From: an uncultured Anaerolineaceae bacterium
GTDB lineage: Bacteria > Chloroflexota > Anaerolineae > Anaerolineales > E44-bin32
Assembly (NCBI GenBank): GCA_964475265.1
Contig: CAYYVY010000006.1
Span: 761 to 64,760 of the forward strand
Direction of reading: 5' to 3'
Length of the DNA stretch: 64,000 nt
The notes beneath the pieces are model-generated. The model searched no databases. It was not told the origin of the DNA and saw only the letters and a program-made list of their open reading frames with translations. Positions within the stretch are counted from its first letter, which is position 1, and the number at the start of each line of letters is the position of its first letter. A program made the position numbers and the translations under genes. Shown piece after piece: positions 16,465 to 31,800 of this stretch.

Positions 16465-16788
16465 GTGTGAACTCCTTACAGCCGAGTTGTATATCTGGTG
16501 TATCGCATTTCACGACACAACTGGGGCATGGCTATAATTTGCAATTCAATACGAAAGTTATGGAACGAATTATAATGGGTAACAGCGTTTCAACACATCA
16601 CACCAATTCTACCACTTCCAAATCCCATCATTCGTGCGGATCATTTTTCCTGGAAACGTTGAGCACGGTTAACTTTCGTATGTGCCAAATTTCACGATAT
16701 GTGATAGGTTTAACGTCTATCGGCTGGTCGTCTCGGGGTGCTATCATTCGTGAATGCAATATAATGGAGGACAAACGGGGTAACATCT

Positions 16789-17154
16789 ATGGAATTGCCC
16801 GTCGTCAATCCGTCTGAAGGAGATCTGCCGCCCGAAGAAGTCCGAATTCGGACGGTGTCGATTGACGTGCAAGCGGATCGTCGCCGAGTACGCATTTCGA
16901 TTGAGCTGACGCCGTTTCAAAGTCCCCCTGATCTTGCGGTGATGATTACAGATCGCGATCGTAGAGAACTGGTCAGTACGAATATCATCGGCGCCATGAA
17001 CAGTAAATTATCGTTTACCATGCATCTTCCCGAGCTCAGGCCTTCGAGTGATTGCATGCTTCATGCAGCAGTGGAATATCAGCAGCAGGGAAGAACTGAC
17101 GAGATGGAGAAGGCTTTTTCGCTAACCAGCACGTCGTCTGCAGCAGAAGATTGA
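16789..17154 (+). CDS. hypothetical protein (121 aa, no recognisable motif)
   Basis: This ORF follows a 325-bp AT-rich intergenic region. Its stop lies 7 nt before the start of the large regulator gene, which suggests co-transcription. I recognise no family. Confidence 0.5.
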   Translation: MELPVVNPSEGDLPPEEVRIRTVSIDVQADRRRVRISIELTPFQSPPDLAVMITDRDRRELVSTNIIGAMNSKLSFTMHLPELRPSSDCMLHAAVEYQQQGRTDEMEKAFSLTSTSSAAED

Positions 17155-17161
17155 GGGGCGG

Positions 17162-20100
17162 ATGGCAAGATACAGCTCCGTTCTACGGCACGCAATTACG
17201 CCACTGAGCTTCGATGTCGAATCCAAGGTGCATCGGGAGCACCTTGTCGATGAAATCCACGCGAACATTCCCCGCAAACTCATTATCGTGGCAGCCCCAG
17301 CAGGGTATGGGAAAACGACGCTGCTCGCCGATTTTACCAATCACACCGAATTGCCGGTTTGCTGGGTACGTCTTTCGGCGTTGGATCAAGACTTATTTCA
17401 TTTCGCCATGGTGCTCTCCAGCTCGCTGCAGCGACGTTTCAGGCGGTTGCAGGGGACGATTGATTTCAACTCGATTTCGGGTTATTCGCCTGAAGCCCTC
17501 GCACGCATGTTTGTCGAAGTGATCGATGCCAATATTAACGAGACCTTCGTCATCGCCCTGGATGACATTCATTGGATCAACAAATCCAAACCGATTCTGT
17601 CTTTTCTGGATCGTTTCCTGGAAGAACAGCCCGAACAGGTAACGCTCATCGCTTTGGGGAGGGAAGTGCTCGAGGTGTCCCTGGCAAAGTTCATGGCGGA
17701 GGGTAATCTGATTGGCTTTGGTCCGCAAGACCTGGCTTTGTCGAAAGAGGAAATCATTCAGCTGGCGCACATCCAATCCGATTTGGATATTGGTGAGGAC
17801 GCTGCAGAGCGGTTGCGGCACGATACGCGTGGTTGGATAACGGGCGTGATCCTTTCGGCGGAATTATCGGGTAGAGGGCTGCATGCGTTGAAGATGAGCT
17901 CGCGGCCAATGGTTTATGAATACCTGGCGTCGGTCGTGCTGAATCGGCAGCCGGACGATCTGCGTCGTTTCGTGCTAGACACTTCGGTTTTTCCGGTCAT
18001 GACGGTGGAGGGCTGTAATTATTTACTGCGGCGCGACGATAGTTCCGCCATGCTGGCTCGCATCGTCAGCCGGGGGTTGTTCGTCACGGCGACGGAGGAC
18101 AGTCCACGAACTTACGAATACCACCCGCAATTCCGTGAATTTCTATTGGAAACCCTCCTGGGTGGAGATGCCAGACATCACAAACGCTTGCTCATCCGTG
18201 CGGCGAAATACCTGGCCGATCACGATTCCCCTGAGTACGCCGTCGAACTTTTCTGCGACGCCGGAGAAGGTAAGAGTGCTGTTGAACTGGCCGAAAAACG
18301 TGCCCGCGAGATGTTTGTCAGCGGGCGTTGGCAAACCCTCGAAGTATGGGCGAGACGGCTTGAAGAGATTGATTCTCCCGCTCTGCGCGTGCTGCTGTTC
18401 CTCGCGGCGAAATATACCTATCAGGGAAGGATCGAGGAAGCGGAGCAAATCCTCGATCAAGCGAAGACAATGCTGGATCTGGATTCGCCTAAAAACGTGC
18501 GCGCGTATTACGAAATCCTTCGCGCCCACATCTCACTTCGTAGAGGATCATACGAGGTGGTTATCGAAATCGTCGAGCGCGCGGAGAAAATTTTAAAACC
18601 ATCCGGCAGACGATTGCAGAAAGCAGAATGTTATCGATTGCGTGCATGGGCATCCTCACGCCAGGGAGATCTACATTCAGCTGAATCCTATTGTGCGAAG
18701 GCGGTTGCATTACTGCGGAAGTCGGACGATCCATTGGAGTTGGCTTACGGTTTAATCGATCAATCCACAATGCAGATTGCCCTGGGCAAATCGTCGGAAG
18801 CGTACGCTACGACGAAGCAAGCACATCAAATCCTGCTGCAGGATGGCGCCCCACTGCCACTGTCGGTTTCCTTCATGAATCTTGCGCACGATTCGCATCA
18901 GCGTGGCGAGTATGAAGAGGCAATGGAGCTGTACAATGAAGGTCTCAAATATGCACGTCAGGCGGCTAGCCCACCGCAAGAAGCTTTAATTCTCTTCGGA
19001 CAAGCGGATTTATTTAACGATCTCAACCTCGCCCTGCAAGCCGCAGAGCTTTATGGTCTGGGATTGGATATCGCCATACATTTGGATGATTTTCAGCATA
19101 TCCGTTATGGCTGCGTGCAGACGAGTGTCCTGCATCGCAGGCGCGGGGGAAGCAGCCTGGCGCATGATTGGCTTCGACGTGCAATGAACCTCGAGAAAAC
19201 CAGCGATTTGACGCCGGAAATTTTGATCCAGTTGGCGGCCCTCGAATCGATGGTCAGACCTCAACAGGCTGTGATGAAGCTTAAATCGATCGTCTCCATG
19301 GAAAACGAAGTCGATGTTGGGATCATCACGTTGGGTCTCTATTTTCAATCGCGAGCGCAATATGCAATCGGGAATCGGGAGGAAGCCCAGAATACACTCA
19401 AACGTGCCCTCGATTGGGCAAACACCAACGGAACCGAGCAATTGCTGTCAGCAGAATTGTCTTTCGATGACGCTTTTCGTGAGTTTGCCAGAACTCGTCT
19501 GACCGGTCACCCGTCACTTTCAGTAGCCCTGCGCAGAGTGGAGACGATGCGAGCCGTCGCACAACATTACCGCAATATTGGCGAAGAAAAGGATCTTCGA
19601 GGTGTACGGCTTGTGTTTAAAGCATTCGGGGATGCACACGTTATCAAGAATGATACCCAGATTACGGATCTGAAACCGCTTGCCCGGGAAGTGTCGTTTT
19701 ATTTGATCGACCACCAGCATGTTGACCGGGATGTGCTCCTGGAGACTTTCTGGCGACACCATCCTCCTGGCCGACAAGTGGCGAATCTGCATACGGCTGT
19801 GTACAGCCTGCGGCGAGTTCTTGGCCGTTCGACAATTCTGCACGAAGGGTCGGTTTACTTGACCAATCCCGATATCCCCATTGAATACGATGTGGCTCGA
19901 TTTGAACGAGCTACGTCGGTGGCGGAGAGCCTGCCGATCGGTGATCCTCGCCGTATGTTCGCCCTCACAGAAGCGATCAACTCATACACAGGGTCCTTCC
20001 TATCGGAATTCGATTCAGATTGGGTCACCGAACGGCGCCGGGATTTGGAACTCCAGTATCTTGACTTGTTGGCGCAGCACGCCGAAGAGGCGCTGATCCG

Positions 20101-20320
20101 CGATCAACCGTTAAGAGCGGTGAATACACTTCGTCAGGCCCTGCAGATCGACCCCCTTCGTGATGATACCAACATCCAATTTCTGGAAGCCCTGGGGCGA
20201 TTAGGCCGGCGCAGTGAAGTCGTAGCCCACTATCAGAAATATGTGAGTCTGCTCTCGATGGAACTGGGACTAGATCCGCCGAAAACGGTCCGTGATCTGT
20301 ACGCTCGCCTGATTAAGTAA
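17162..20320 (+). CDS. STAND-type P-loop NTPase - TPR/helical repeats - C-terminal SARP module (winged helix + BTAD) transcriptional regulator
   Basis: 1052 aa. It has Walker A AAPAGYGKTTLL and Walker B FVIALDDIHW (MalT/LuxR-large-ATPase-like), followed by a long helical-repeat middle. The last ~250 aa match the OmpR-type wHTH (...LLETFWRHHPPGRQVANLHTAVYSLRRVLG) and the BTAD (...LRQALQIDPLRDDTNIQFLEALGRLGRRSEVVAHYQKYVSLLSMELGLDPPKTVRDLYARL). Confidence 0.85.
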   Translation: MARYSSVLRHAITPLSFDVESKVHREHLVDEIHANIPRKLIIVAAPAGYGKTTLLADFTNHTELPVCWVRLSALDQDLFHFAMVLSSSLQRRFRRLQGTIDFNSISGYSPEALARMFVEVIDANINETFVIALDDIHWINKSKPILSFLDRFLEEQPEQVTLIALGREVLEVSLAKFMAEGNLIGFGPQDLALSKEEIIQLAHIQSDLDIGEDAAERLRHDTRGWITGVILSAELSGRGLHALKMSSRPMVYEYLASVVLNRQPDDLRRFVLDTSVFPVMTVEGCNYLLRRDDSSAMLARIVSRGLFVTATEDSPRTYEYHPQFREFLLETLLGGDARHHKRLLIRAAKYLADHDSPEYAVELFCDAGEGKSAVELAEKRAREMFVSGRWQTLEVWARRLEEIDSPALRVLLFLAAKYTYQGRIEEAEQILDQAKTMLDLDSPKNVRAYYEILRAHISLRRGSYEVVIEIVERAEKILKPSGRRLQKAECYRLRAWASSRQGDLHSAESYCAKAVALLRKSDDPLELAYGLIDQSTMQIALGKSSEAYATTKQAHQILLQDGAPLPLSVSFMNLAHDSHQRGEYEEAMELYNEGLKYARQAASPPQEALILFGQADLFNDLNLALQAAELYGLGLDIAIHLDDFQHIRYGCVQTSVLHRRRGGSSLAHDWLRRAMNLEKTSDLTPEILIQLAALESMVRPQQAVMKLKSIVSMENEVDVGIITLGLYFQSRAQYAIGNREEAQNTLKRALDWANTNGTEQLLSAELSFDDAFREFARTRLTGHPSLSVALRRVETMRAVAQHYRNIGEEKDLRGVRLVFKAFGDAHVIKNDTQITDLKPLAREVSFYLIDHQHVDRDVLLETFWRHHPPGRQVANLHTAVYSLRRVLGRSTILHEGSVYLTNPDIPIEYDVARFERATSVAESLPIGDPRRMFALTEAINSYTGSFLSEFDSDWVTERRRDLELQYLDLLAQHAEEALIRDQPLRAVNTLRQALQIDPLRDDTNIQFLEALGRLGRRSEVVAHYQKYVSLLSMELGLDPPKTVRDLYARLIK

Positions 20321-20513
20321 ACGGCGCTGTTTTTAGGTTTCGCTTTTCTAAATTTCTGGAGAACTGTCATCGTCTGACCGCCAAGTAGTAAAAAATCGTC
20401 AATCCCCCATTGATCGCTGTGGCCTGCAATTTGCATCCCATCCGGCACGACCATTCAACTCCAGTCCAATGTAATTATGATCCGGTCTGAAATGCTTGAA
20501 TCGTCCATCTTTT

Positions 20514-20556
20514 GTTGATTGTCGTTGAGAATCTGTTGAGTACTTTATTGTAGAGT
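20514..20556 (+). promoter_or_regulatory. three direct GTTGA(G) repeats at 10/11-nt phasing plus a candidate -10 TAGAGT
   Basis: GTTGA occurs at 20514, 20524 and 20535, and the last two copies are GTTGAG. TAGAGT lies at 20551-20556, 9 nt after the third repeat. The layout resembles SARP boxes. Confidence 0.4.
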
Positions 20557-20594
20557 AATAAGCAGAGAGAGAACACAATCATAAGGAGGTTGCC

Positions 20595-20645
20595 ATGCCG
20601 AATGTACGCTGCGTTCGCGGTGGTGGTCTTATTGGCGGGGGCTAG
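20595..20645 (+). CDS. 16-codon micro-ORF MPNVRCVRGGGLIGGG (candidate small peptide or leader peptide)
   Basis: AGGAGG at 20584-20589 sits 5 nt before the ATG, and the ORF ends in TAG. A clean intrinsic terminator follows 43 nt later. It is too short for the ORF track. Confidence 0.35.
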   Translation: MPNVRCVRGGGLIGGG

Positions 20646-20687
20646 ATTTTTAGCCGTTTATATTTGAATCACACCAATAATACGCCT

Positions 20688-20724
20688 GGCAGCGAGGCGA
20701 AGTGACTTGCTGCCTTTTTATTTT
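20688..20724 (+). terminator. intrinsic terminator between the micro-ORF and the NHLP-like gene
   Basis: The stem GGCAGCGAG/CTTGCTGCC is 9 bp with one G-U pair, the loop is 9 nt, and TTTTTATTTT follows. Confidence 0.65.
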
Positions 20725-20757
20725 CTAGACCTTACGATATTCAGGAGGTTTTTAAAA

Positions 20758-21048
20758 ATGAGTATGCAAAGTCTAAATCAGCTCGTGGCACGTTCGATTA
20801 TCGATCCAGGTGTCGTGCAGGCTTTTACATCCGGCAACATGTCTGAAATCCTGAACGGAATGGATTTAACACCCAAACTTCGAGCTGATCTCGGTTGTCT
20901 CGAAGCGAGTTCGTTTGTGGAATTTGCGATCAAAGCATACCGAATTGTAAAAGCCGCGGAGATAAAACCACTCCAAATCGATTTGCCTTCTCCGATTACA
21001 GGCTTGATTTCGGATCAAGATCGTGCAGAAGGTGAACAAGCTGCATGA
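20758..21048 (+). CDS. small helical protein resembling NHLP/Nif11-type leader-domain proteins
   Basis: 96 aa, with AGGAGG 9 nt before ATG 20758. The TTG start at 20707 in the track lies inside the terminator stem. The pattern LNQLVARSIIDPGVVQAF...MDLTPKLRADLGCLEASSFVEFA resembles NHLP-clan leader regions. This assignment is from memory and is unverified. Confidence 0.55.
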   Translation: MSMQSLNQLVARSIIDPGVVQAFTSGNMSEILNGMDLTPKLRADLGCLEASSFVEFAIKAYRIVKAAEIKPLQIDLPSPITGLISDQDRAEGEQAA

Positions 21049-21545
21049 TCGCTTGCACGAAGAAGGAGCGGGAGTGGTTCTTGCAGAACATCGCACAGGG
21101 ACTTGTGGATTATCTCGGTGTGATGGAACCTCCCGTACCAATCGAAGATCTGCTTAAGAATCCCCCGGCATTATTCGATGCGGATTTCGGCGTCGTAGAA
21201 ATGAACTCCGAGCTATGGGACGCTACGTTCGCGCGGCTGCCCGATCAAAGTGGCAAAGTATTCGTCCATACAAACCTCGGACCAGAAGCTCGCCGTTACG
21301 CATTGGCGCGGGAGACCTTAAGTGCATTGATAACCAGCAAGCACGGACAAAACATGGGTCTTTTTGAATTGGTTGAATCCCACTTAAGAGAATCTGCGGA
21401 ATTTTTTGCAAGAATACTGCTCGCGCCGCCGCGTTTGCTACGTCGCTTCTGTTCCGGGGATGGCGCGGTAAAGCGGATTGTAACGGAATTTAAATTACCG
21501 ATGCACGCCGCTTCGAAACTTTGGGAAGAAATGAGTACAGCCTAG
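21045..21545 (+). CDS. ImmA/IrrE (DUF955)-like protein with a degenerate metal site
   Basis: 166 aa with an ATGA overlap to the previous gene. Its topology matches ImmA/IrrE (RRYALARETLSALI ... ESAEFFARILLAPPRLL), but HExxH is replaced by RETLS. Confidence 0.6.
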   Translation: MIACTKKEREWFLQNIAQGLVDYLGVMEPPVPIEDLLKNPPALFDADFGVVEMNSELWDATFARLPDQSGKVFVHTNLGPEARRYALARETLSALITSKHGQNMGLFELVESHLRESAEFFARILLAPPRLLRRFCSGDGAVKRIVTEFKLPMHAASKLWEEMSTA

Positions 21546-21570
21546 TACGATCATGTAGTACCGCATCGGG

Positions 21571-21600
21571 AGAGCCGACCTTGGGCCGGCTCTTTTTCTT
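21571..21600 (+). terminator. intrinsic terminator closing the island
   Basis: The stem AGAGCCG(A)CC/GG(C)CGGCTCT has one mismatch, and TTTTCTTT follows. Confidence 0.7.
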
Positions 21601-21724
21601 TCCCAAGTACCTGGATTAAGCGCTCACGGAAATCTTTTCTGTATCTCCTTTTTGGCACCTACCTTGCACGAAATGGCGTGAATGTAGAAGCCAGGTATAA
21701 TCGCATGCTTGAGGGTGAATATCT

Positions 21725-23647
21725 TTGACGAATCATGAGACATCTCTAAGCGATACAACATCTGGGGCTCGAAGGACAACGATAAAACCCTGGATTTTTC
21801 GATCCTTTCTATTTCTCGCTTTAATCGTTGTTGGTGGGATTGGATGGATAAGCGTTCGAATTCAAAATCGCCTGCGCGACTCGCAAATGGATCCGACGGT
21901 AATATCGTTAGCCACTTCGATGGCGTACACCGCAACGCCGAGTCCATCGCTTACGGTTTCTCCTGCCTTGCCGACCAATACTCCGGCGCCTACAAGAACC
22001 ACATCGTGGGGAACGATCATCTTTTCGGGAAGAGAAAATGGGCGGACACATTTGTGGGCTTATGTTCCGGGCGATTCGAGCCCATCTCGACTGACGGGCG
22101 GTGCGTGGGATGACCGTGATCCAGCCGTGAGTCCCGATGGATTGTCGGTTGCATTTTCCTCGCGTCGGAATGGACACTGGGATTTATATGTACTCGACTT
22201 GCAATCGGGTGAAATCCGACAGCTATCCAACACCCCAGGATATGAAGGAAACCCGACATGGTCTCCGGATGGAATGTGGTTGGCGTTCGAGGCTTACTAC
22301 AATGACAATTTTGACATTTGGATCGTTCCTGTCGATCTCGGACAGGCTCCGATCCAACTCACGATCTATCCGGGTGCGGACCTCAGCCCAAGCTGGGATC
22401 CTCAAGGGCGCAGGATTGCCTTTGTTTCCGATCGGGATGGCTCTCCTGATATCTTTCTGGCAAACCTCGATGAACCGGATGATCGTTTTCGCAACATGAC
22501 CAACACCAAATCGACCGTTGAGAGTACGCCGGTCTTTAGCATCGACGGATCTTCGTTGGCTTACAGTGAAACCTCCTCGGGAATTGATGTCGTCAAGGTG
22601 TTTGACATGAACGATCTCGATCGGCCGCCTTACGAAGCCGGGCAAGGCCGTCATGCGGCCTGGTCTCCCGATGGACGATACATGGTCACCATTTTGCGTA
22701 CGGCGTTGTACCGTCGCTTTCAGGTTTTCGCCCTCGATCATTCCGAAGCAACGGATTTGCCGGTCATGCCATGGGTTGATGTTGATGACGTAACGTGGAC
22801 GGCGGCAGGGATGCCGGGAGAGATCTACGCCGCCGAACGAATACCGGCCACCGATGCACCGTTGTTGGATACAGCGCTTGACGAACTACAGAACGAGAAT
22901 GAATTAAAGGACCTTGTTGATCTACCCGGCGTACGCGCCCCACATCCTTCTTTGTCTGAGGCCGTCGACCAGAATTTTCTTGCCCTCAAGCAACGCAGCA
23001 TTTCAGTCCTGGGATGGGATTTCCTGGAAAGTCTGGACAATGCCTTCGTTGGTTTGAACGATCCGATGCCTCCCGGATTTGCGTACAACGATTGGCTCTA
23101 CACCGGTCGGGCATTTGCTTTCAACAGCTCGGCGATACAGGCTGGTTGGGTGGAATTCCTTCGAGAGGATTTTGGCGGTCAAACATTTTGGCGGGTTTAT
23201 GTACTCGCGGCGCTTCAAGACGGCACGCTGGGAGAACCGCTGCGAGAACTGCCGTGGGATTTCGATACGCGTATTAACGGAGATCCGAGCACTTACGATC
23301 AGGGTGGATCGCTGCAAGAGTCCATCCCCCCTGGCTATTACGTCGATTTTACGCAGTTGGCCGCCGATTACGGTTTTGAACGACTTCCCGCGCTGTCCAA
23401 TTGGCGTACGTTCTATCACGGAACGCGCCTCAACGAGTTCGTTCGACGCGAGGGTTTAAGCTGGACAGAGGCGATGTTGGAACTGTATCCCGCCTCGGCA
23501 CTGGTGACACCCACGCCGTTCCAAACCCCGACAAACACGCCTACACGCACGCCGAAACCGACGGCAACGTCCTGGTGGTGGCGCTGGCGAACCCCGTCTC
23601 CAACACCAACGCAGCAGCCGGTATATACCCCCACTGCGACGCCATGA
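21725..23647 (+). CDS. membrane-anchored TolB-like (PD40 beta-propeller repeat) protein with an unknown C-terminal domain and a Pro/Thr-rich tail
   Basis: 640 aa with an N-terminal TM segment and repeated PD40-like units (DRDPAVSPDG, EGNPTWSPDG, DLSPSWDPQG, HAAWSPDG). The C-terminus is PTNTPTRTPKPTATSWWWRWRTPSPTPTQQP. Confidence 0.75.
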   Translation: MTNHETSLSDTTSGARRTTIKPWIFRSFLFLALIVVGGIGWISVRIQNRLRDSQMDPTVISLATSMAYTATPSPSLTVSPALPTNTPAPTRTTSWGTIIFSGRENGRTHLWAYVPGDSSPSRLTGGAWDDRDPAVSPDGLSVAFSSRRNGHWDLYVLDLQSGEIRQLSNTPGYEGNPTWSPDGMWLAFEAYYNDNFDIWIVPVDLGQAPIQLTIYPGADLSPSWDPQGRRIAFVSDRDGSPDIFLANLDEPDDRFRNMTNTKSTVESTPVFSIDGSSLAYSETSSGIDVVKVFDMNDLDRPPYEAGQGRHAAWSPDGRYMVTILRTALYRRFQVFALDHSEATDLPVMPWVDVDDVTWTAAGMPGEIYAAERIPATDAPLLDTALDELQNENELKDLVDLPGVRAPHPSLSEAVDQNFLALKQRSISVLGWDFLESLDNAFVGLNDPMPPGFAYNDWLYTGRAFAFNSSAIQAGWVEFLREDFGGQTFWRVYVLAALQDGTLGEPLRELPWDFDTRINGDPSTYDQGGSLQESIPPGYYVDFTQLAADYGFERLPALSNWRTFYHGTRLNEFVRREGLSWTEAMLELYPASALVTPTPFQTPTNTPTRTPKPTATSWWWRWRTPSPTPTQQPVYTPTATP

Positions 23648-24729
23648 GACGCTTCGGACTCCTTCTGCTTGCGATCGCACTAACGGCGGTTTTGCTCTTC
23701 GCCTGTGAATCCGAGGGCGGCGGTATCGCTCATCCCACCGAGTCGAGCGGCGTTGAGCCTCCGCTTTCTGCAACGGCGACACCCTCGGACGCGCAGGATG
23801 TTTCGAATCCCATGCTCGGCGACCCGGCCAAGACGCCGTTGCCCGTCGCGTTCCCCACAGTTGAGCCGAGTGAAGAGCTGGATTGGCGGCCGCCGCCTTA
23901 TCCCGCGCCTTGGGCACTGCGTGCGGAAGACCATTATTTCTTCTGGCGGCCCATTCCTTCAGGACAGGTAAATTGGCCCCATCCTTTTTACCGCTATGGG
24001 AGTTCCTATTTCGGCGAATCGGACATCCATACCGGTGTGGATTTGGGCGCCGATCGTGGTGCACCCGTACTCGCGGCCGGCTCGGGTGAGGTGGTCTGGG
24101 TTGGCTATGGACTTTACCGCGGCACGGAAGATCCGTCCGACCCGTATGGCCTCGCGGTGGCAATCCGGCACGATTTTGGCTATCGAGGGCAGGAACTCTA
24201 TACGGTTTACGCACATATGCAAGAGATCTTCGTCTGGGATGGGCAGCATGTAGAGGCCGGTGAGCAACTTGGGACCGTGGGATCCACAGGGCACTCCGAT
24301 GGTCCTCATCTGCACTTCGAAGTTCGGTTGGGGGAAAATCGTTACTTCAGCACGAGAAACCCCGAATTGTGGATGGTACCTCCCGAAGGCTGGGCGGTGT
24401 TGGCCGGACGAATTACGGATACCTATGGGAATCTAATGCCCGAATTTCCGTTGAAAATTCGATCGTTGGAAACGGACAAGAAGTGGGAAGTATGGACGTA
24501 CGTCCTCACGACGATTCATCCTGATGATTATTACAATGAAAATTTCGTGATCAGTGATTTGCCTGCCGGGCCGTACGAGATAACGATCGATTTCGTAGGC
24601 TTTCAATACGTCGCATATTTAACTCTATACGCAGGTGAAACCAACTTCATACTGTTTCGTGGCCGCAATGGTTTCGTCGTTCATCCTACGCCGACGCCGG
24701 TCGATCACTCCAGACCTCCCGATCTATAA
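23644..24729 (+). CDS. M23 (LytM-type) metallopeptidase lipoprotein
   Basis: I prefer ATG 23644 (ATGA overlap with the upstream stop), which gives MRRFGLLLLAIALTAVLLFAC, a lipobox-like signal. The M23 motifs HTGVDLG and GHSDGPHLHFEVR are present. Confidence 0.85.
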   Translation: MRRFGLLLLAIALTAVLLFACESEGGGIAHPTESSGVEPPLSATATPSDAQDVSNPMLGDPAKTPLPVAFPTVEPSEELDWRPPPYPAPWALRAEDHYFFWRPIPSGQVNWPHPFYRYGSSYFGESDIHTGVDLGADRGAPVLAAGSGEVVWVGYGLYRGTEDPSDPYGLAVAIRHDFGYRGQELYTVYAHMQEIFVWDGQHVEAGEQLGTVGSTGHSDGPHLHFEVRLGENRYFSTRNPELWMVPPEGWAVLAGRITDTYGNLMPEFPLKIRSLETDKKWEVWTYVLTTIHPDDYYNENFVISDLPAGPYEITIDFVGFQYVAYLTLYAGETNFILFRGRNGFVVHPTPTPVDHSRPPDL

Positions 24730-27687: not shown

Positions 27688-28005
27688 TGGCATAATCGTT
27701 CGAAACGTTAATAATCGATAAAAGCGGTGACGGAGACGAGTACACCCCTGTAGGGTGACAAGCGAGTCCGGGTTGGTGTGAGCCGGATTTACCCGGCGGG
27801 TGGAAAATCCCTCCTGAGCTGTGACCTGAATGCAGTTGGTCCGCTACTAAGGAAGCCGGCTTCGCCAGCCGTTATCCACGGCGCGAACATAATCCCGGAA
27901 CTCCGGGCCGTGTTCGAGCGAGCGCCTGCCTTGTTGCAGGAATCGGGGTGGTACCGCGGGAGTCACATTACCTCTCGTCCCTAGATAGGGACGAGATTTT
28001 TCTTT
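27688..28005 (+). promoter_or_regulatory. T-box riboswitch leader (candidate Ile AUC specifier) with an extended -10 promoter and terminator
   Basis: TGgCATAAT lies at 27688-27696. Stem I elements are present: a GA/K-turn-like TGACGGAGA, AGTA, the AG bulge AGCGAGTCCGG and the distal GGTTGGTGTGAGCC. In the specifier loop GGAAAAUCC the AUC is at 27807-27809. The T-box sequence AATCGGGGTGGTACCGCGGG lies at 27941-27960. The terminator TCTCGTCCCT/AGGGACGAGA plus TTTTTCTTT lies at 27973-28005. Confidence 0.85.
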
Positions 28006-28819: not shown

Positions 28820-31800
28820 ATGTTCAAAGCCGTACCTAGTCAAATCGATTTCGTTGCACAGGAACACGAAATCCTCAAGTTCTGGGAGCAGACGAAGGCT
28901 TTTAAGAAACTTGTCGCTTTACGTCAGGACGGTCCAACGTGGTCGTTCATCGATGGCCCGATTACTGCCAACAATCCGATGGGCGTACACCATGGTTGGG
29001 GCCGCACGTACAAAGATCTATTCCATCGCTATATGAGCATGCAAGGGCACCGTACGCGCTACCAGAATGGTTTTGATTGTCAGGGTTTGTGGGTCGAGGT
29101 GAATGTTGAGCGGGATAAAGGATTCAAGACCAAGCGCGATATCGAAGCCTTCGGCTTGGCGAAGTTTGTCGTTCTCTGTAAACAGCGTGTCCTCAACTAC
29201 GCCGCCGTCCAAACCGAGCAGAGCATCCGCTTGGGATACTGGATGGATTGGAACGATCCGCAGCGCCTGCGCTGGCTGAGTGAAAAATTGGGGGAAGATC
29301 CGGCCCAAAGTATCGAATTCCAGGGTCCCGATGGCCCGGTGCAAAATAGCGTGGAGCAAATCGTCGGCCATCTGGGAATGCCTGAATTGGGAGGCTCTTA
29401 CTTCACCTTTTCCAACGAGAACAATTACACCATTTGGTCGGTACTCAAATCGTGCAGCGAACGAGGCTGGGTCTATAAAGGAACGGACGTAATGCCGTGG
29501 TGCTGGCGTTGTGGCACCGGGTTGAGTCAGCACGAGATCGTAACCGAGGGGTACCAGGAAAAGACACATCCCAGCATCACGCTGCGTTTCCCGCTCAAGG
29601 ACCGACCGGGTGAGAATCTGTTGGTTTGGACGACGACGCCATGGACGTTGACAAGCAACGTGGCGGCCGCCGTAGGCCCGGATTTAACCTACGTGCGGGT
29701 GAAGCAAGGCGACGAATTTTTCTATCTCAGCCGCGGAACCCTGCACACGTTGAAGGGCGACTATGAAGTCCTCGAGGAGCTTCCCGGTTCAGAAATGGAA
29801 GGCTGGTCGTATGAGGGTCCGTTCGACGAGCTGCCGGCACAAATCGAGAAGAAGTCGCCACAGGCGCACCGCGTGATCCTGTGGGACGAGGTCGGAGAGG
29901 AAGAGGGCACCGGAATCGTCCACATCGCACCGGGCTGTGGTGCGGAAGACTTCGCACTTGGCAAGGAATACGATTTGCCCGTAATCGCACCGCTGTCAGA
30001 ATCCGGGCACTTCGTAGAAAATTTCGATTGGTTGAGCGGGAAGCACGTCGACGGAATCTCGCAGCCGATCTTCGAGAATCTTGACAAGAAGGGGCTGTCG
30101 TACCGTGTCGATGATTACACCCACCGCTATCCGGTTTGTTGGCGCTGTGGTGAGGATCTGGTTTTTCGTCTGGTGGATGAATGGTTTATCTCCATGGGGG
30201 CGCAGTTGGACAAACCGTACGACGAGGTCACGCAGGCGGAGAAAGCGGATAACTTACGCTACCAGATGATGGAAGTCGTGATCAACGAAACCCAGTGGTA
30301 CCCGTACTTTGGATTTGAACGCGAACTTGATTGGCTGCGAAACATGCATGATTGGATGATCTCGAAAAAGCGTTACTGGGGACTCGCCCTTCCGATTTGG
30401 GAATGCGGCCAATGTGGTAATTACGACATTATCGGCAGCAAGGAAGAATTGAAGCAACGTGCTGTCGCCGGCTGGGAAGAATTTGAAGGCCATTCGCCGC
30501 ATCGACCTTTTATCGATGCTGTGAAAATCGAATGCAGTCAGTGCGGAGCGCAAATCGAACGCATCCCCGATGTCGGTAATCCGTGGTTGGATGCGGGAAT
30601 CGTCGGTATGAGTACGCTCTCCTACAATTCGAATCCCGAGTTTTGGCGGAAGTGGTTCCCTGCCGACTTGATCAGTGAGAGTTTTCCAGGCCAGTTCCGC
30701 AACTGGTTCTACAGCCTGTTGGCGATGAGCACGATTCTCGAGCGCAAGGCGCCTTTCCGAAACGTCTTTACCTACGCGACGCTGCTTGCAGAGGATGGCC
30801 GTGCCATGCACAAGTCCTGGGGCAATGCCATCGAGTTCAACGAAGCCGCGGACAAGATGGGCGTTGACGTGATGCGCTGGCTGTACTGCAATCACAAACC
30901 TGAGCGCGATCTCATTTTCGGTTATCACCGCGCGGACGAAGTCAGGCGGCAGTTCTTGATTCCCTTGTGGAACGTCTATTCCTTCTTCGTTACCTACGCC
31001 AATATCGACGAATGGACTCCCGATGCGAGCCACAAGGCTTCATACAGCCAGATCGATCACTGGATTCTCTCCAGGCTTAACAAGTTGATGCTGCAGGTTA
31101 AGTATGGTCTCGACACCTACGAGCCAGACGCAGCAACCGATGCGGCCAATCAATTCCTCGACGATCTCAGCAATTGGTATTTACGGCGCAGTCGCAGGAG
31201 ATTTTGGGCAAAAGCCGGTGCGAGCCAGGCTTCCGACGAGGATAAAAATGCCGCCTATGCCACGCTGTATGAGGTGCTCACGTCGCTGGCCAAAGTCCTG
31301 GCCCCATTTGTGCCTTTTGTAACGGAGGCGATGTACCAAAACCTCGTTCGCTCGATCGACCCGCAGGCCCCGGAAAGCGTCCATCACTGCGATTGGCCGC
31401 TGGCAAAGGAGGATCTGATCGATCGAGATTTAATCGCGGACATGGCTCTGGTGACGAAGCTGGTCTCTTTAGGCCACGCGGCACGCAACAAAGCCAACCG
31501 CAAACTGCGTCAGCCGCTGGGGCAGGCTGCTTTCTTCGTGGGTACGAAGGACGAAGCGGAGACGGTGCGAAAACATTCGGATTTGATTCTCGAGGAATTG
31601 AACGTGAAGGAAATCCGGCTCATGGATGCCGTCTCCGAGGCCGCCGCCTTGCGTATCAAACCGCTGCCAAAGCAGTTGGGTCAGAAATTCGGTTCACGCT
31701 TTCCGGCCATTCGCCAGGTAATTCAATCCATGGACTCATCCGAGTCGGAGAGCATTGCCGTACAGCTATTGAATGAGGGCAAGGCTTTCTCGATCGAGGT

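Follow-up and report, generated by a model that had tools for sequence, protein, structure and literature searches.

A MalT-type STAND regulator with a C-terminal SARP module and its predicted leader-controlled operon in Anaerolineales

What does a regulator of the SARP type control when it sits among housekeeping genes of a Chloroflexota bacterium, upstream of a very short open reading frame (ORF) and two small protein genes? We examined this question for a locus in a 64-kb stretch of contig CAYYVY010000006.1 (assembly GCA_964475265.1, positions 761 to 64,760 of the forward strand) from an uncultured Anaerolineaceae bacterium. This whole stretch is called the window; coordinates refer to it, and all features of the module lie on its + strand. 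An earlier note, made from the letters of this DNA alone, had described five co-directional ORFs, here called orf121, the regulator, the micro-ORF, gene iv and gene v, and had proposed a self-contained sensor-regulator that drives a small-peptide/pseudo-protease operon. The five ORFs, the GTTGA repeats, the Shine-Dalgarno (SD) sites and both terminators were all found at the positions given there (Table 1). The reading that we favor, and regard as reasonably probable, is a chromosomal, vertically inherited circuit of Anaerolineales whose regulatory architecture is like that of AfsR-afsS, and in which a sensor would activate an adjacent leader-attenuated operon.

The evidence that carries this reading is comparative. 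The gene v family was used to scan one genome per GTDB species, and 80 loci were obtained, nearly all on contigs titled as Anaerolineales, Anaerolineae or other Chloroflexota metagenome-assembled genomes (MAGs); the exceptions are a contig titled as a Methanosarcinales archaeon, one titled as Desulfuromonadales and one titled only 'uncultured bacterium'. On contigs that were long enough, tblastn with the window proteins gave a constant order, namely DUF1385 and M20 (both on the minus strand), orf121, regulator, iv, v, PD40 and M23, which persists down to about 50% amino-acid identity. The central part, orf121-regulator-iv-v, is kept in about 60 loci where the contig permits a view, and L015, L024, L030 and L073 retain it without the housekeeping flanks. 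These features are more than the product of chance: in about 60-80 independent genomes at species level, the same elements reappear with unchanged order and register. The earlier expectation that the genes are co-located elsewhere was borne out, the module genes being adjacent in about 80 other genomes. The proposal that they form an island fails on the same evidence, for the module is a vertically inherited syntenic block with its gene order kept in about 80 species genomes. Its GC content is 0.515 versus 0.543 for the whole window, and is clearly lower only in two intergenic regions (0.43-0.44) and in gene iv (0.46), so that the AT-rich character noted earlier is clear in these parts and marginal in the module overall. 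A mobile or AT-rich island was thus ruled out by the conserved synteny and a GC gap of just 0.03.

The most divergent members delimit what is constant. In loci L081-L085, where gene iv is 25-30% identical, iv still comes after a MalT-BTAD regulator (1029-1054 aa), a micro-ORF rich in glycine and a hairpin of the GGCAG type, and L085 additionally has an orf121 homolog; downstream of iv stand unrelated genes or immediately the PD40 gene, and gene v is missing. Since gene v is absent from these clades, the invariant core consists of the regulator, the box described below, the micro-ORF and iv, and gene v, listed earlier among the five ORFs, is a clade-specific addition.

What kind of protein is the regulator? 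Its N-terminal part has a Walker A motif (GYGKT), and residues 19-558 match the NCBIfam MalT model NF003420 (E = 6.6e-60) with 203 bits, far under the equivalog cut-off of 537. Pfam reported TPR_MalT and AAA_22/AAA_16, the ATPase lying at residues ~27-167, and a WHD_MalT winged-helix domain was recorded in homologs. At the other end, Pfam BTAD (PF03704) covers residues 910-1050 (E = 3.7e-21, 76.5 bits versus a cut-off of 22.1), and positions 23-266 of the NCBIfam AfsR model match residues 811-1051 (E = 6.2e-16), which is the part made up of a winged helix-turn-helix (wHTH) and BTAD. The wHTH in front of BTAD is of the OmpR type, as residues 786-955 align to a Trans_reg_C-positive regulator (E = 9e-11); Pfam Trans_reg_C itself has no match on the window protein. 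Neither NB-ARC (Pfam) nor a GerE/LuxR-type HTH (Pfam, NCBIfam) was matched on the regulator. A MalT N-terminus joined to an AfsR/BTAD C-terminus, without NB-ARC or a LuxR HTH, is best described as a STAND protein of the MalT/LAL type in which a SARP module has taken the place of the C-terminal LuxR HTH. The earlier description of a permuted STAND-TPR-SARP protein was therefore right as to the STAND, TPR and C-terminal SARP parts, and is better replaced by this one as far as a permuted AfsR was meant. Two tandem STAND-SARP paralogs, 30-45% identical to the window protein, sit upstream of one single micro-ORF-iv-v unit in L015, L024, L028, L030, L065 and L073.

If the regulator carries a SARP module, the next question is where it would bind. 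The spacer between the regulator and iv is 437 bp long in the window, and the spacers of about 65 loci were aligned on the micro-ORF. GTTGA occurs at 20514, 20524 and 20535. All three phased copies reported earlier are present and two of them are conserved elsewhere: only the pair of 11-bp direct repeats at 20524-20545 recurs in other genomes, and the weaker upstream repeat (20513-20523) is specific to the window. The consensus of the pair, GTTGAGAATCnGTTGAGA, is found with three or fewer mismatches and in constant register in at least 48 loci, and in main-clade loci it starts 58-81 nt upstream of the micro-ORF ATG. A TAnnnT hexamer occupies the same alignment column, 5 nt past the second 11-bp unit, in nearly all loci, and transcription would start near 20563. 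In SARP promoters, direct repeats with a periodicity of 11 bp overlap the -35 region, and about 8 bp lie between the 3' repeat and the -10 (PMC10936776); here, 9 bp separate the 3' heptamer from TAnnnT. Repeats and hexamer together conform to SARP-box geometry as judged from their spacing, and the adjacent regulator may well be the protein that uses this putative box. At the presumed 5' end of the leader (window 20563-20582), a purine-rich motif, GAG(A/T)GGA(A/T), is conserved in most loci.

The box was also sought outside the module. The exact 18-mer has 30 sites in metagenomes, of which 11 are in the module and 2 stand beside REC-wHTH regulators; the remaining sites are, by our own estimate, consistent with chance for the size of the database. 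On the two contigs with REC-wHTH regulators (L086 and L104), an identical box, GTTGAGAATCCGTTGAGA, lies directly after the gene of an unrelated REC-Trans_reg_C regulator and 5 nt before a TACAAT -10. These regulators are preceded by a histidine kinase, of the 7TMR-DISM type in L086, the only one of the two that was scanned, and theirs is the DNA-binding domain that aligns to window residues 786-955 as given above; a stretch ANLxTA...R.VL is similar in the two. These sites suggest that different phyla have a DNA-binding specificity in common. After the box, L104 has a second REC-domain gene, and the next long ORF in L086 has a weak GLUG-motif match. Across the window, a search for a second box gave a single other match, with 3 mismatches (29609-29625, + strand, GGTGAGAATCTGTTGGT), inside IleRS. 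Two or more box matches were obtained in 6 of 100 window shuffles, and the site, being compatible with chance, was rejected as an autoregulation or regulon site.

Is the short ORF behind this predicted promoter a gene? In nearly every locus, ~65 in all, a glycine-rich ORF of 9-19 codons with a strong SD stands at the equivalent position. Examples of its product are MARCPMVGGGGT, MVSTRCPRDGALID, MTGVRCVVPAGGPGGGH, MRGSDGGFC and MAHDPVGGG, and, in divergent clades, MYSRTPMTGGNGGG and MPANDGGGN; common to the peptides are a basic residue, in many cases (C)P or D, and a tail rich in glycine. In eight sub-clades, each of equal ORF length, the variable columns at codon positions 1, 2 and 3 numbered 22, 16 and 49 (chi-square p = 2.4e-5), and the glycine codons vary synonymously. 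This third-position bias and the synonymous glycine changes indicate that the micro-ORF is translated and that its coding content is under selection, in other words that it is a real gene, selected at the protein level. It is missing from the called genes in the five loci that were retrieved with gene calls. In L065 it is duplicated in tandem (positions 461 and 564 of an 856-nt spacer), with both copies encoding MKSPRDQGVGSM and each having its own SD. Many micro-ORFs (for example, those of L014, L019, L027 and L036, and not the window copy) contain R-C-P and a hydrophobic residue, a motif that resembles heme-regulatory Cys-Pro motifs; the R-C-P codons are complementary to the terminator arm, and it may instead be the RNA that is conserved.

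The leader holds two predicted hairpins, one over the micro-ORF stop and one ahead of gene iv. Hairpins spanning the micro-ORF stop were predicted in 64 of 66 loci with a mean z of -1.07, the spanning fraction being a raw count. The larger hairpin, an intrinsic terminator, lies 42 nt past the micro-ORF stop and 33 nt ahead of iv, and its GGCAGCG...CUGCC stem with U-tract is conserved in about 60 loci. Since the U-tract ends just 33 nt before the start codon of iv, which in the window leaves no room for a separate promoter, iv-v most likely depends on read-through, and the leader may be viewed as a candidate attenuator. In 41% of loci, above all in those encoding A-R-C-P, the micro-ORF opens with codons (GCUCGCUGCC) that form the reverse complement of the terminator 5' arm, a complementarity that is significant versus shuffles (mean z = -1.48). 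In some of these loci the SD pairs with the terminator 3' arm too, so that translation of the micro-ORF and antitermination would be mutually exclusive there.

Other accounts of the leader sequence were set aside. Each locus has a single copy of the 11-mer GGCAGCGAGGC, located in the leader, save for one stray copy elsewhere in L052, and the 64-kb window has one, which speaks against a genome-wide repeat behind the conserved hairpin arm. A sigma-54 promoter reading of TGGCAGC...TTGCTGCC was rejected because the spacing, judged by eye, is 14 nt and not 5 and because the motif is not kept in other clades. No Rfam leader family matched at gathering score, and a permissive search gave only noise at E > 1. 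About 25 of the 80 contigs begin 1.1 kb or less upstream of gene v, and about 6 end 1.1 kb or less downstream. Contig starts in the leader include L012, L014, L017, L020, L021, L035, L036, L038, L040, L047, L050 and L077; the breaks correspond to window 20500-20757, and in several cases the contig starts precisely with the conserved hairpin (ACCAGGCAGCGAGGC...) or within the SARP box. They possibly reflect strain-level hypervariability or a repeat elsewhere in the genomes.

The next question concerns the products of the operon. An exhaustive profile search of 1.84 billion representative proteins returned only 50 relatives of gene iv, nearly all of ~96 aa. The model of the gene iv product is all-helical (predicted local distance difference test, pLDDT, 73); Foldseek found no PDB fold match (none at E < 3), and the PDB profile search was also empty. 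No HTH was matched in Pfam or NCBIfam and no HTH protein was found by Foldseek, the DdrO C-terminal domain appearing only at a non-significant E = 9. Among 35 relatives, families of the NHLP clan were matched below threshold: NF038399 (Os1348 family) by 6 (best E = 1.1e-5), PF14407 (Frankia_peptide) by 3 (23 bits versus a cut-off of 48) and TIGR04351 (TOMM nitrile-hydratase-type) by 1, and no match with a listed score reached the curated cut-off. A remote relationship of gene iv to the NHLP clan is plausible from these profile matches; the NHLP/Nif11 likeness pointed out earlier thus has weak backing in relatives and none in the window protein. The tail has a conserved LPSPxxGL, a charged variable stretch and then -AA, without GG or a conserved Cys. 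It ends in Ala (-AA or -VA) in 33 of 35 sequences, and this Ala is kept in the examined loci in which no gene overlaps the stop codon (L081, L085), which makes it a feature of the protein. C-termini of this kind can serve as degrons for ClpXP or Tsp; that -AA does so here is a lead only.

The gene v family is restricted to this lineage. Pfam M78 (PF06114) matches 23 of 26 members (best E = 5.6e-10), and five members scanned singly scored 27-34 bits versus the gathering threshold of 22, with residues 64-159 matched to profile positions 22-121. The AlphaFold model (pLDDT 77; predicted template modeling score, pTM, 0.80) has CapP (7t5t) as its top Foldseek match, with a probability of 0.99, and the M78-like domain of Mycobacterium tuberculosis PrpR follows at 0.94. 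RExxS stands at the position of HExxH, as located by the Pfam match coordinates and by the surrounding motif context, which we take to be the known HExxH context; R89, E90 and S93 are invariant in all 26 aligned sequences. Both zinc-binding histidines are gone, and no alternative conserved His was found in the 26. With RExxS in every member, zinc-dependent cleavage is very unlikely, and gene v is, to judge from its sequence, a catalytically dead M78 pseudoenzyme. The pseudo-ImmA with RETLS for HExxH that had been proposed is therefore correct at the family level. A PDB sequence search with the gene v profile gave only spurious luciferase matches, and tblastn of a gene v relative against phages gave nothing.

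How might these parts work together? In the circuit that we favor, the TPR sensor of the MalT-type STAND ATPase would receive a signal, possibly together with the co-translated orf121 product. Its C-terminal SARP module would bind the two 11-bp repeats overlapping the -35 region and recruit RNA polymerase. The transcript would open with the strongly translated glycine-rich 16-codon ORF followed by the terminator, and only read-through would reach iv-v. The output would be two translationally coupled products, the small acidic helical protein iv and the dead ImmA/IrrE-fold protein v, and v probably binds iv rather than cleaving it, an interaction that we infer. Binding of the box by the regulator and attenuation by the terminator are likewise predicted. 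The conserved box in register with the -10 and the selection on the micro-ORF give comparative support to the original idea of a sensor-regulator driving an adjacent operon.

Several results weigh against this circuit. The window gene v alone has no Pfam or NCBIfam match, although it is 51-92% identical to aligned family members, most of which match M78, and the window gene iv has none on its own either (NHLP none at E <= 1). The iv-v partnership is not universal, as v is absent from the divergent clades. The outer stem of the terminator is invariant and the inner stem shifts register across the ~60 loci, for which reason covariation cannot be scored and lends no support. The complementarity between ORF and arm is at chance in the window (z = -0.04), and classical 2:3 (spacer-to-arm) pairing is unsupported in any locus (mean z = +0.09). 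A classical four-segment, trp-like attenuator was rejected, since its spacer-to-arm pairing is at chance level.

Comparison with known systems shows where the module agrees with them and where it departs. Streptomyces AfsR is a large SARP in the order N-terminal SARP, NB-ARC/NOD and TPR that activates the adjacent small gene afsS (PMC10936776). Both AfsR and the window regulator unite a STAND ATPase, a TPR sensor and a SARP in one protein (PMC10936776). In both systems the target promoter is directly downstream of the regulator gene, two 11-bp direct repeats overlap the -35 at a fixed distance to the -10, and the target consists of small proteins of unclear mechanism. The domain order, however, is reversed, with the SARP C-terminal here (811-1051) and N-terminal in AfsR; the ATPase here is MalT-type, with no NB-ARC Pfam match seen; the host belongs to Chloroflexota and not Actinomycetota, there is no antibiotic-cluster link, and the target is the micro-ORF leader with iv-v and not AfsS. 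With MalT/LAL regulators the protein shares about 560 N-terminal residues that fit the MalT model, the Walker A motif GYGKT and MalT-like TPRs. It differs from them in its score (203 versus the 537 bits of the equivalog cut-off), in having wHTH and BTAD in place of the C-terminal LuxR-type HTH, and in its operator, a direct repeat overlapping the -35 rather than MalT boxes.

In the ImmR-ImmA, DdrO-IrrE and CapH-CapP pairs, a small regulator gene is followed by one for an M78 metalloprotease that cleaves its product. The module likewise couples a small first gene to an M78-fold protein whose best structure match is CapP, but RExxS is present in 26 of 26 aligned members, the upstream partner iv has neither an HTH (Xre-type) nor a fold match, and there is no link to a prophage, an integrative and conjugative element or CBASS. 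The leader resembles the trp, his, thr and leu attenuators in its short translated ORF with a run of a single codon type (3-6 Gly codons here), in the hairpin terminator between leader ORF and structural genes, and in a possible alternative pairing of leader ORF and terminator arm in many lineages. It is unlike them in that the downstream genes are not glycine-biosynthetic, the 1:2 / 2:3 / 3:4 four-segment logic is unsupported, the promoter is predicted to be activator-dependent, and conservation of the peptide within clades extends past the Gly run. As for NHLP/Nif11 precursors (NF038399, PF14407) of ribosomally synthesized and post-translationally modified peptides (RiPPs), the size and the helical N-terminal domain of iv are similar and several iv relatives match below threshold. 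Unlike them, the iv family has no listed score that reaches a curated cut-off, has no GG motif and no Cys-rich core, is tiny (50 representatives), and has no maturase or exporter among the scanned neighbors.

Which other explanations could account for the locus? It is possible, though doubtful, that the micro-ORF is mainly a functional micropeptide gene, whose product acts as an effector or as a ligand that feeds back on the TPR sensor in an RRNPP-like or NLR-like loop, and that the terminator merely ends it. TPR domains commonly bind short peptides, and the ORF, which is selected at the protein level and has an SD and a terminator to itself, is always found immediately after the gene of a regulator with TPRs, divergent clades included; the R-C-P-hydrophobic motif of many clades, with the heme-regulatory Cys-Pro likeness mentioned above, may be added. 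The peptides nevertheless differ strongly among clades, with only a basic residue and a Gly run in common and Cys absent in several, and they have no secretion signal. No separate promoter for iv-v is visible in the window. Moreover, the R-C-P codons of many clades fall on RNA that is complementary to the terminator arm, and this can account for their being conserved. An extended form of this idea, which we consider unlikely, has an order-wide, unannotated micropeptide gene whose product or translation would be read by the NLR-like STAND-TPR-SARP protein, in a closed intracellular circuit controlling the NHLP-like/pseudo-protease pair; we know of no such peptide- or translation-sensing circuit for bacterial STAND regulators.

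SARPs typically control secondary-metabolite clusters, and one may ask whether gene iv encodes a RiPP precursor that has a leader of the NHLP type and a C-terminal tail matured or released with the help of gene v, the STAND-SARP protein serving as cluster-situated activator. The sub-threshold NHLP-clan matches (6/35, 3/35 and 1/35) and the conserved PSPxxGL and C-terminal Ala after the helical domain speak for it. We find it very unlikely nonetheless, as the window iv has no NHLP match, its model matches neither nitrile hydratase nor any other PDB entry by fold, and neither a Gly-Gly cleavage site nor a Cys/Ser/Thr-rich core is present. Gene v, for its part, has neither of the zinc-binding histidines and does not occur in divergent clades. 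The locus is also single-copy and syntenic across the order, unlike RiPP clusters, and no maturase, transporter or C39-peptidase ABC exporter is present among the scanned flanking genes, all of them housekeeping: TilS, GlnA, Vut_1, TtuA-like, ThiS, DUF1385, M20, PD40, ProRS-like, MBL-fold, AlaX-like, IleRS and LspA (the scan covered these flanking genes of the window, and the adjacent M23 ORF was named from its sequence). A mobile island, a toxin-antitoxin pair or an anti-phage defense system is extremely unlikely. STAND NTPases and COG2856/ImmA proteins are common in defense and toxin-antitoxin contexts, the GC content is slightly below that of the flanks, and the closest structure to v is that of the CBASS-associated CapP; yet about 80 species genomes keep the order with the housekeeping flanks, a transcription-activator module forms the C-terminus of the regulator, no effector domain is present and gene v is predicted to be catalytically dead. 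The window has no tRNA genes, and the PADLOC defense models gave nothing significant, only P-loop-level matches at E >= 0.01, on which ground a defense system was rejected.

Table 1. Features of the module and of the box-bearing regulator contigs (window coordinates unless a contig is named)
Feature	Position	Strand	Remark
AT-rich intergenic region upstream of orf121	16465-16788	+	GC 0.426
Sigma-70-like promoter match TTCACG-18-TATAAT	16509-16538	+	consensus match only
orf121, conserved small protein, ~120 aa	16789-17154	+	stop 7 nt before regulator ORF
Regulator, 1052 aa: MalT-type STAND P-loop NTPase, TPR sensor, C-terminal SARP (wHTH + BTAD)	17162-20320	+	
Probable SARP box, two 11-bp direct repeats GTTGAGAATCT + GTTGAGTACTT	20524-20545	+	exact window match; binding predicted
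-10-like hexamer TAGAGT	20551-20556	+	5 nt past second 11-bp repeat
SD AAGGAGG	20583-20589	+	
Micro-ORF, 16 codons, ATG CCG AAT ... GGC TAG, product MPNVRCVRGGGLIGGG	20595-20645	+	
Small hairpin enclosing micro-ORF stop, GGCUAG-AUUU-UUAGCC	20640-20655	+	
Intrinsic terminator/attenuator hairpin GGCAGCGAG...CUUGCUGCC + U-tract	20688-20724	+	-16.4 kcal/mol
Gene iv, 96 aa, acidic, own AGGAGG, C-terminal -AA	20758-21048	+	ATGA overlap with gene v
Gene v, 166 aa, ImmA/IrrE (Peptidase_M78) fold, ALARETLSAL	21045-21545	+	ATGA-coupled to iv
Intrinsic terminator closing iv-v, GAGCCGACC-UUG-GGCCGGCUC + UUUUUCUUU	21572-21601	+	fold and sequence
REC-wHTH regulator regions	L086 6013-7000; L104 4181-5245		unrelated, lower-GC metagenome contigs

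The remaining member of the module is orf121. Its homologs stand directly upstream of the regulator in about 35 loci, mostly with gaps of -14 to +9 nt and in a few loci with larger ones of up to 331 nt, and the gene is probably coupled translationally to the regulator. Pfam and NCBIfam gave no named family for it; weak matches to MG2 (Ig-like, Pfam) in 5 of 18 members suggest that it is probably a beta-sandwich. No SARP box was found in the intergenic region upstream of it (16465-16788). On the other side of the module, PD40 and M23 genes adjoin it in most genomes. In the window, the PD40/TolB-like ORF (21725-23647) and the M23-peptidase ORF (23401-24729) overlap by ~250 nt as mechanically called, the overlap region has Pro/Thr-rich linkers, and the true M23 start is probably further downstream than called. 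Farther along, a T-box leader (27718-27985, + strand; Rfam RF00230, 93.8 bits versus a gathering score of 93) precedes the AlaX-like tRNA-editing gene and IleRS.

No named system matching the module was found in Pfam, NCBIfam, PADLOC or Rfam, and no description of it was found in the literature on SARP/STAND/MalT/BTAD regulators and NHLP proteins (ImmA, Chloroflexi, Franean1_4349). The module is uncharacterized, as the earlier note had supposed, and all its parts belong to known superfamilies.

In summary, the locus would give the Anaerolineales, which are abundant in sludge, sediments and the subsurface and are genetically almost unstudied, a complete predicted and testable circuit made up of sensor, operator, promoter, leader and output. 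It extends SARP regulators outside actinomycetes and outside antibiotic clusters, and adds a new SARP architecture, a MalT-type STAND protein with a C-terminal SARP module. A conserved and, by its substitution pattern, translated gene of only 9-19 codons is documented, and two small protein families without known role are defined, one NHLP-clan-like with C-terminal -AA and the other a pseudoenzyme of the ImmA/IrrE type that carries RExxS. Provided that the box is assigned correctly, GTTGAGAATCnGTTGAGA could serve for mapping the regulon in MAGs.

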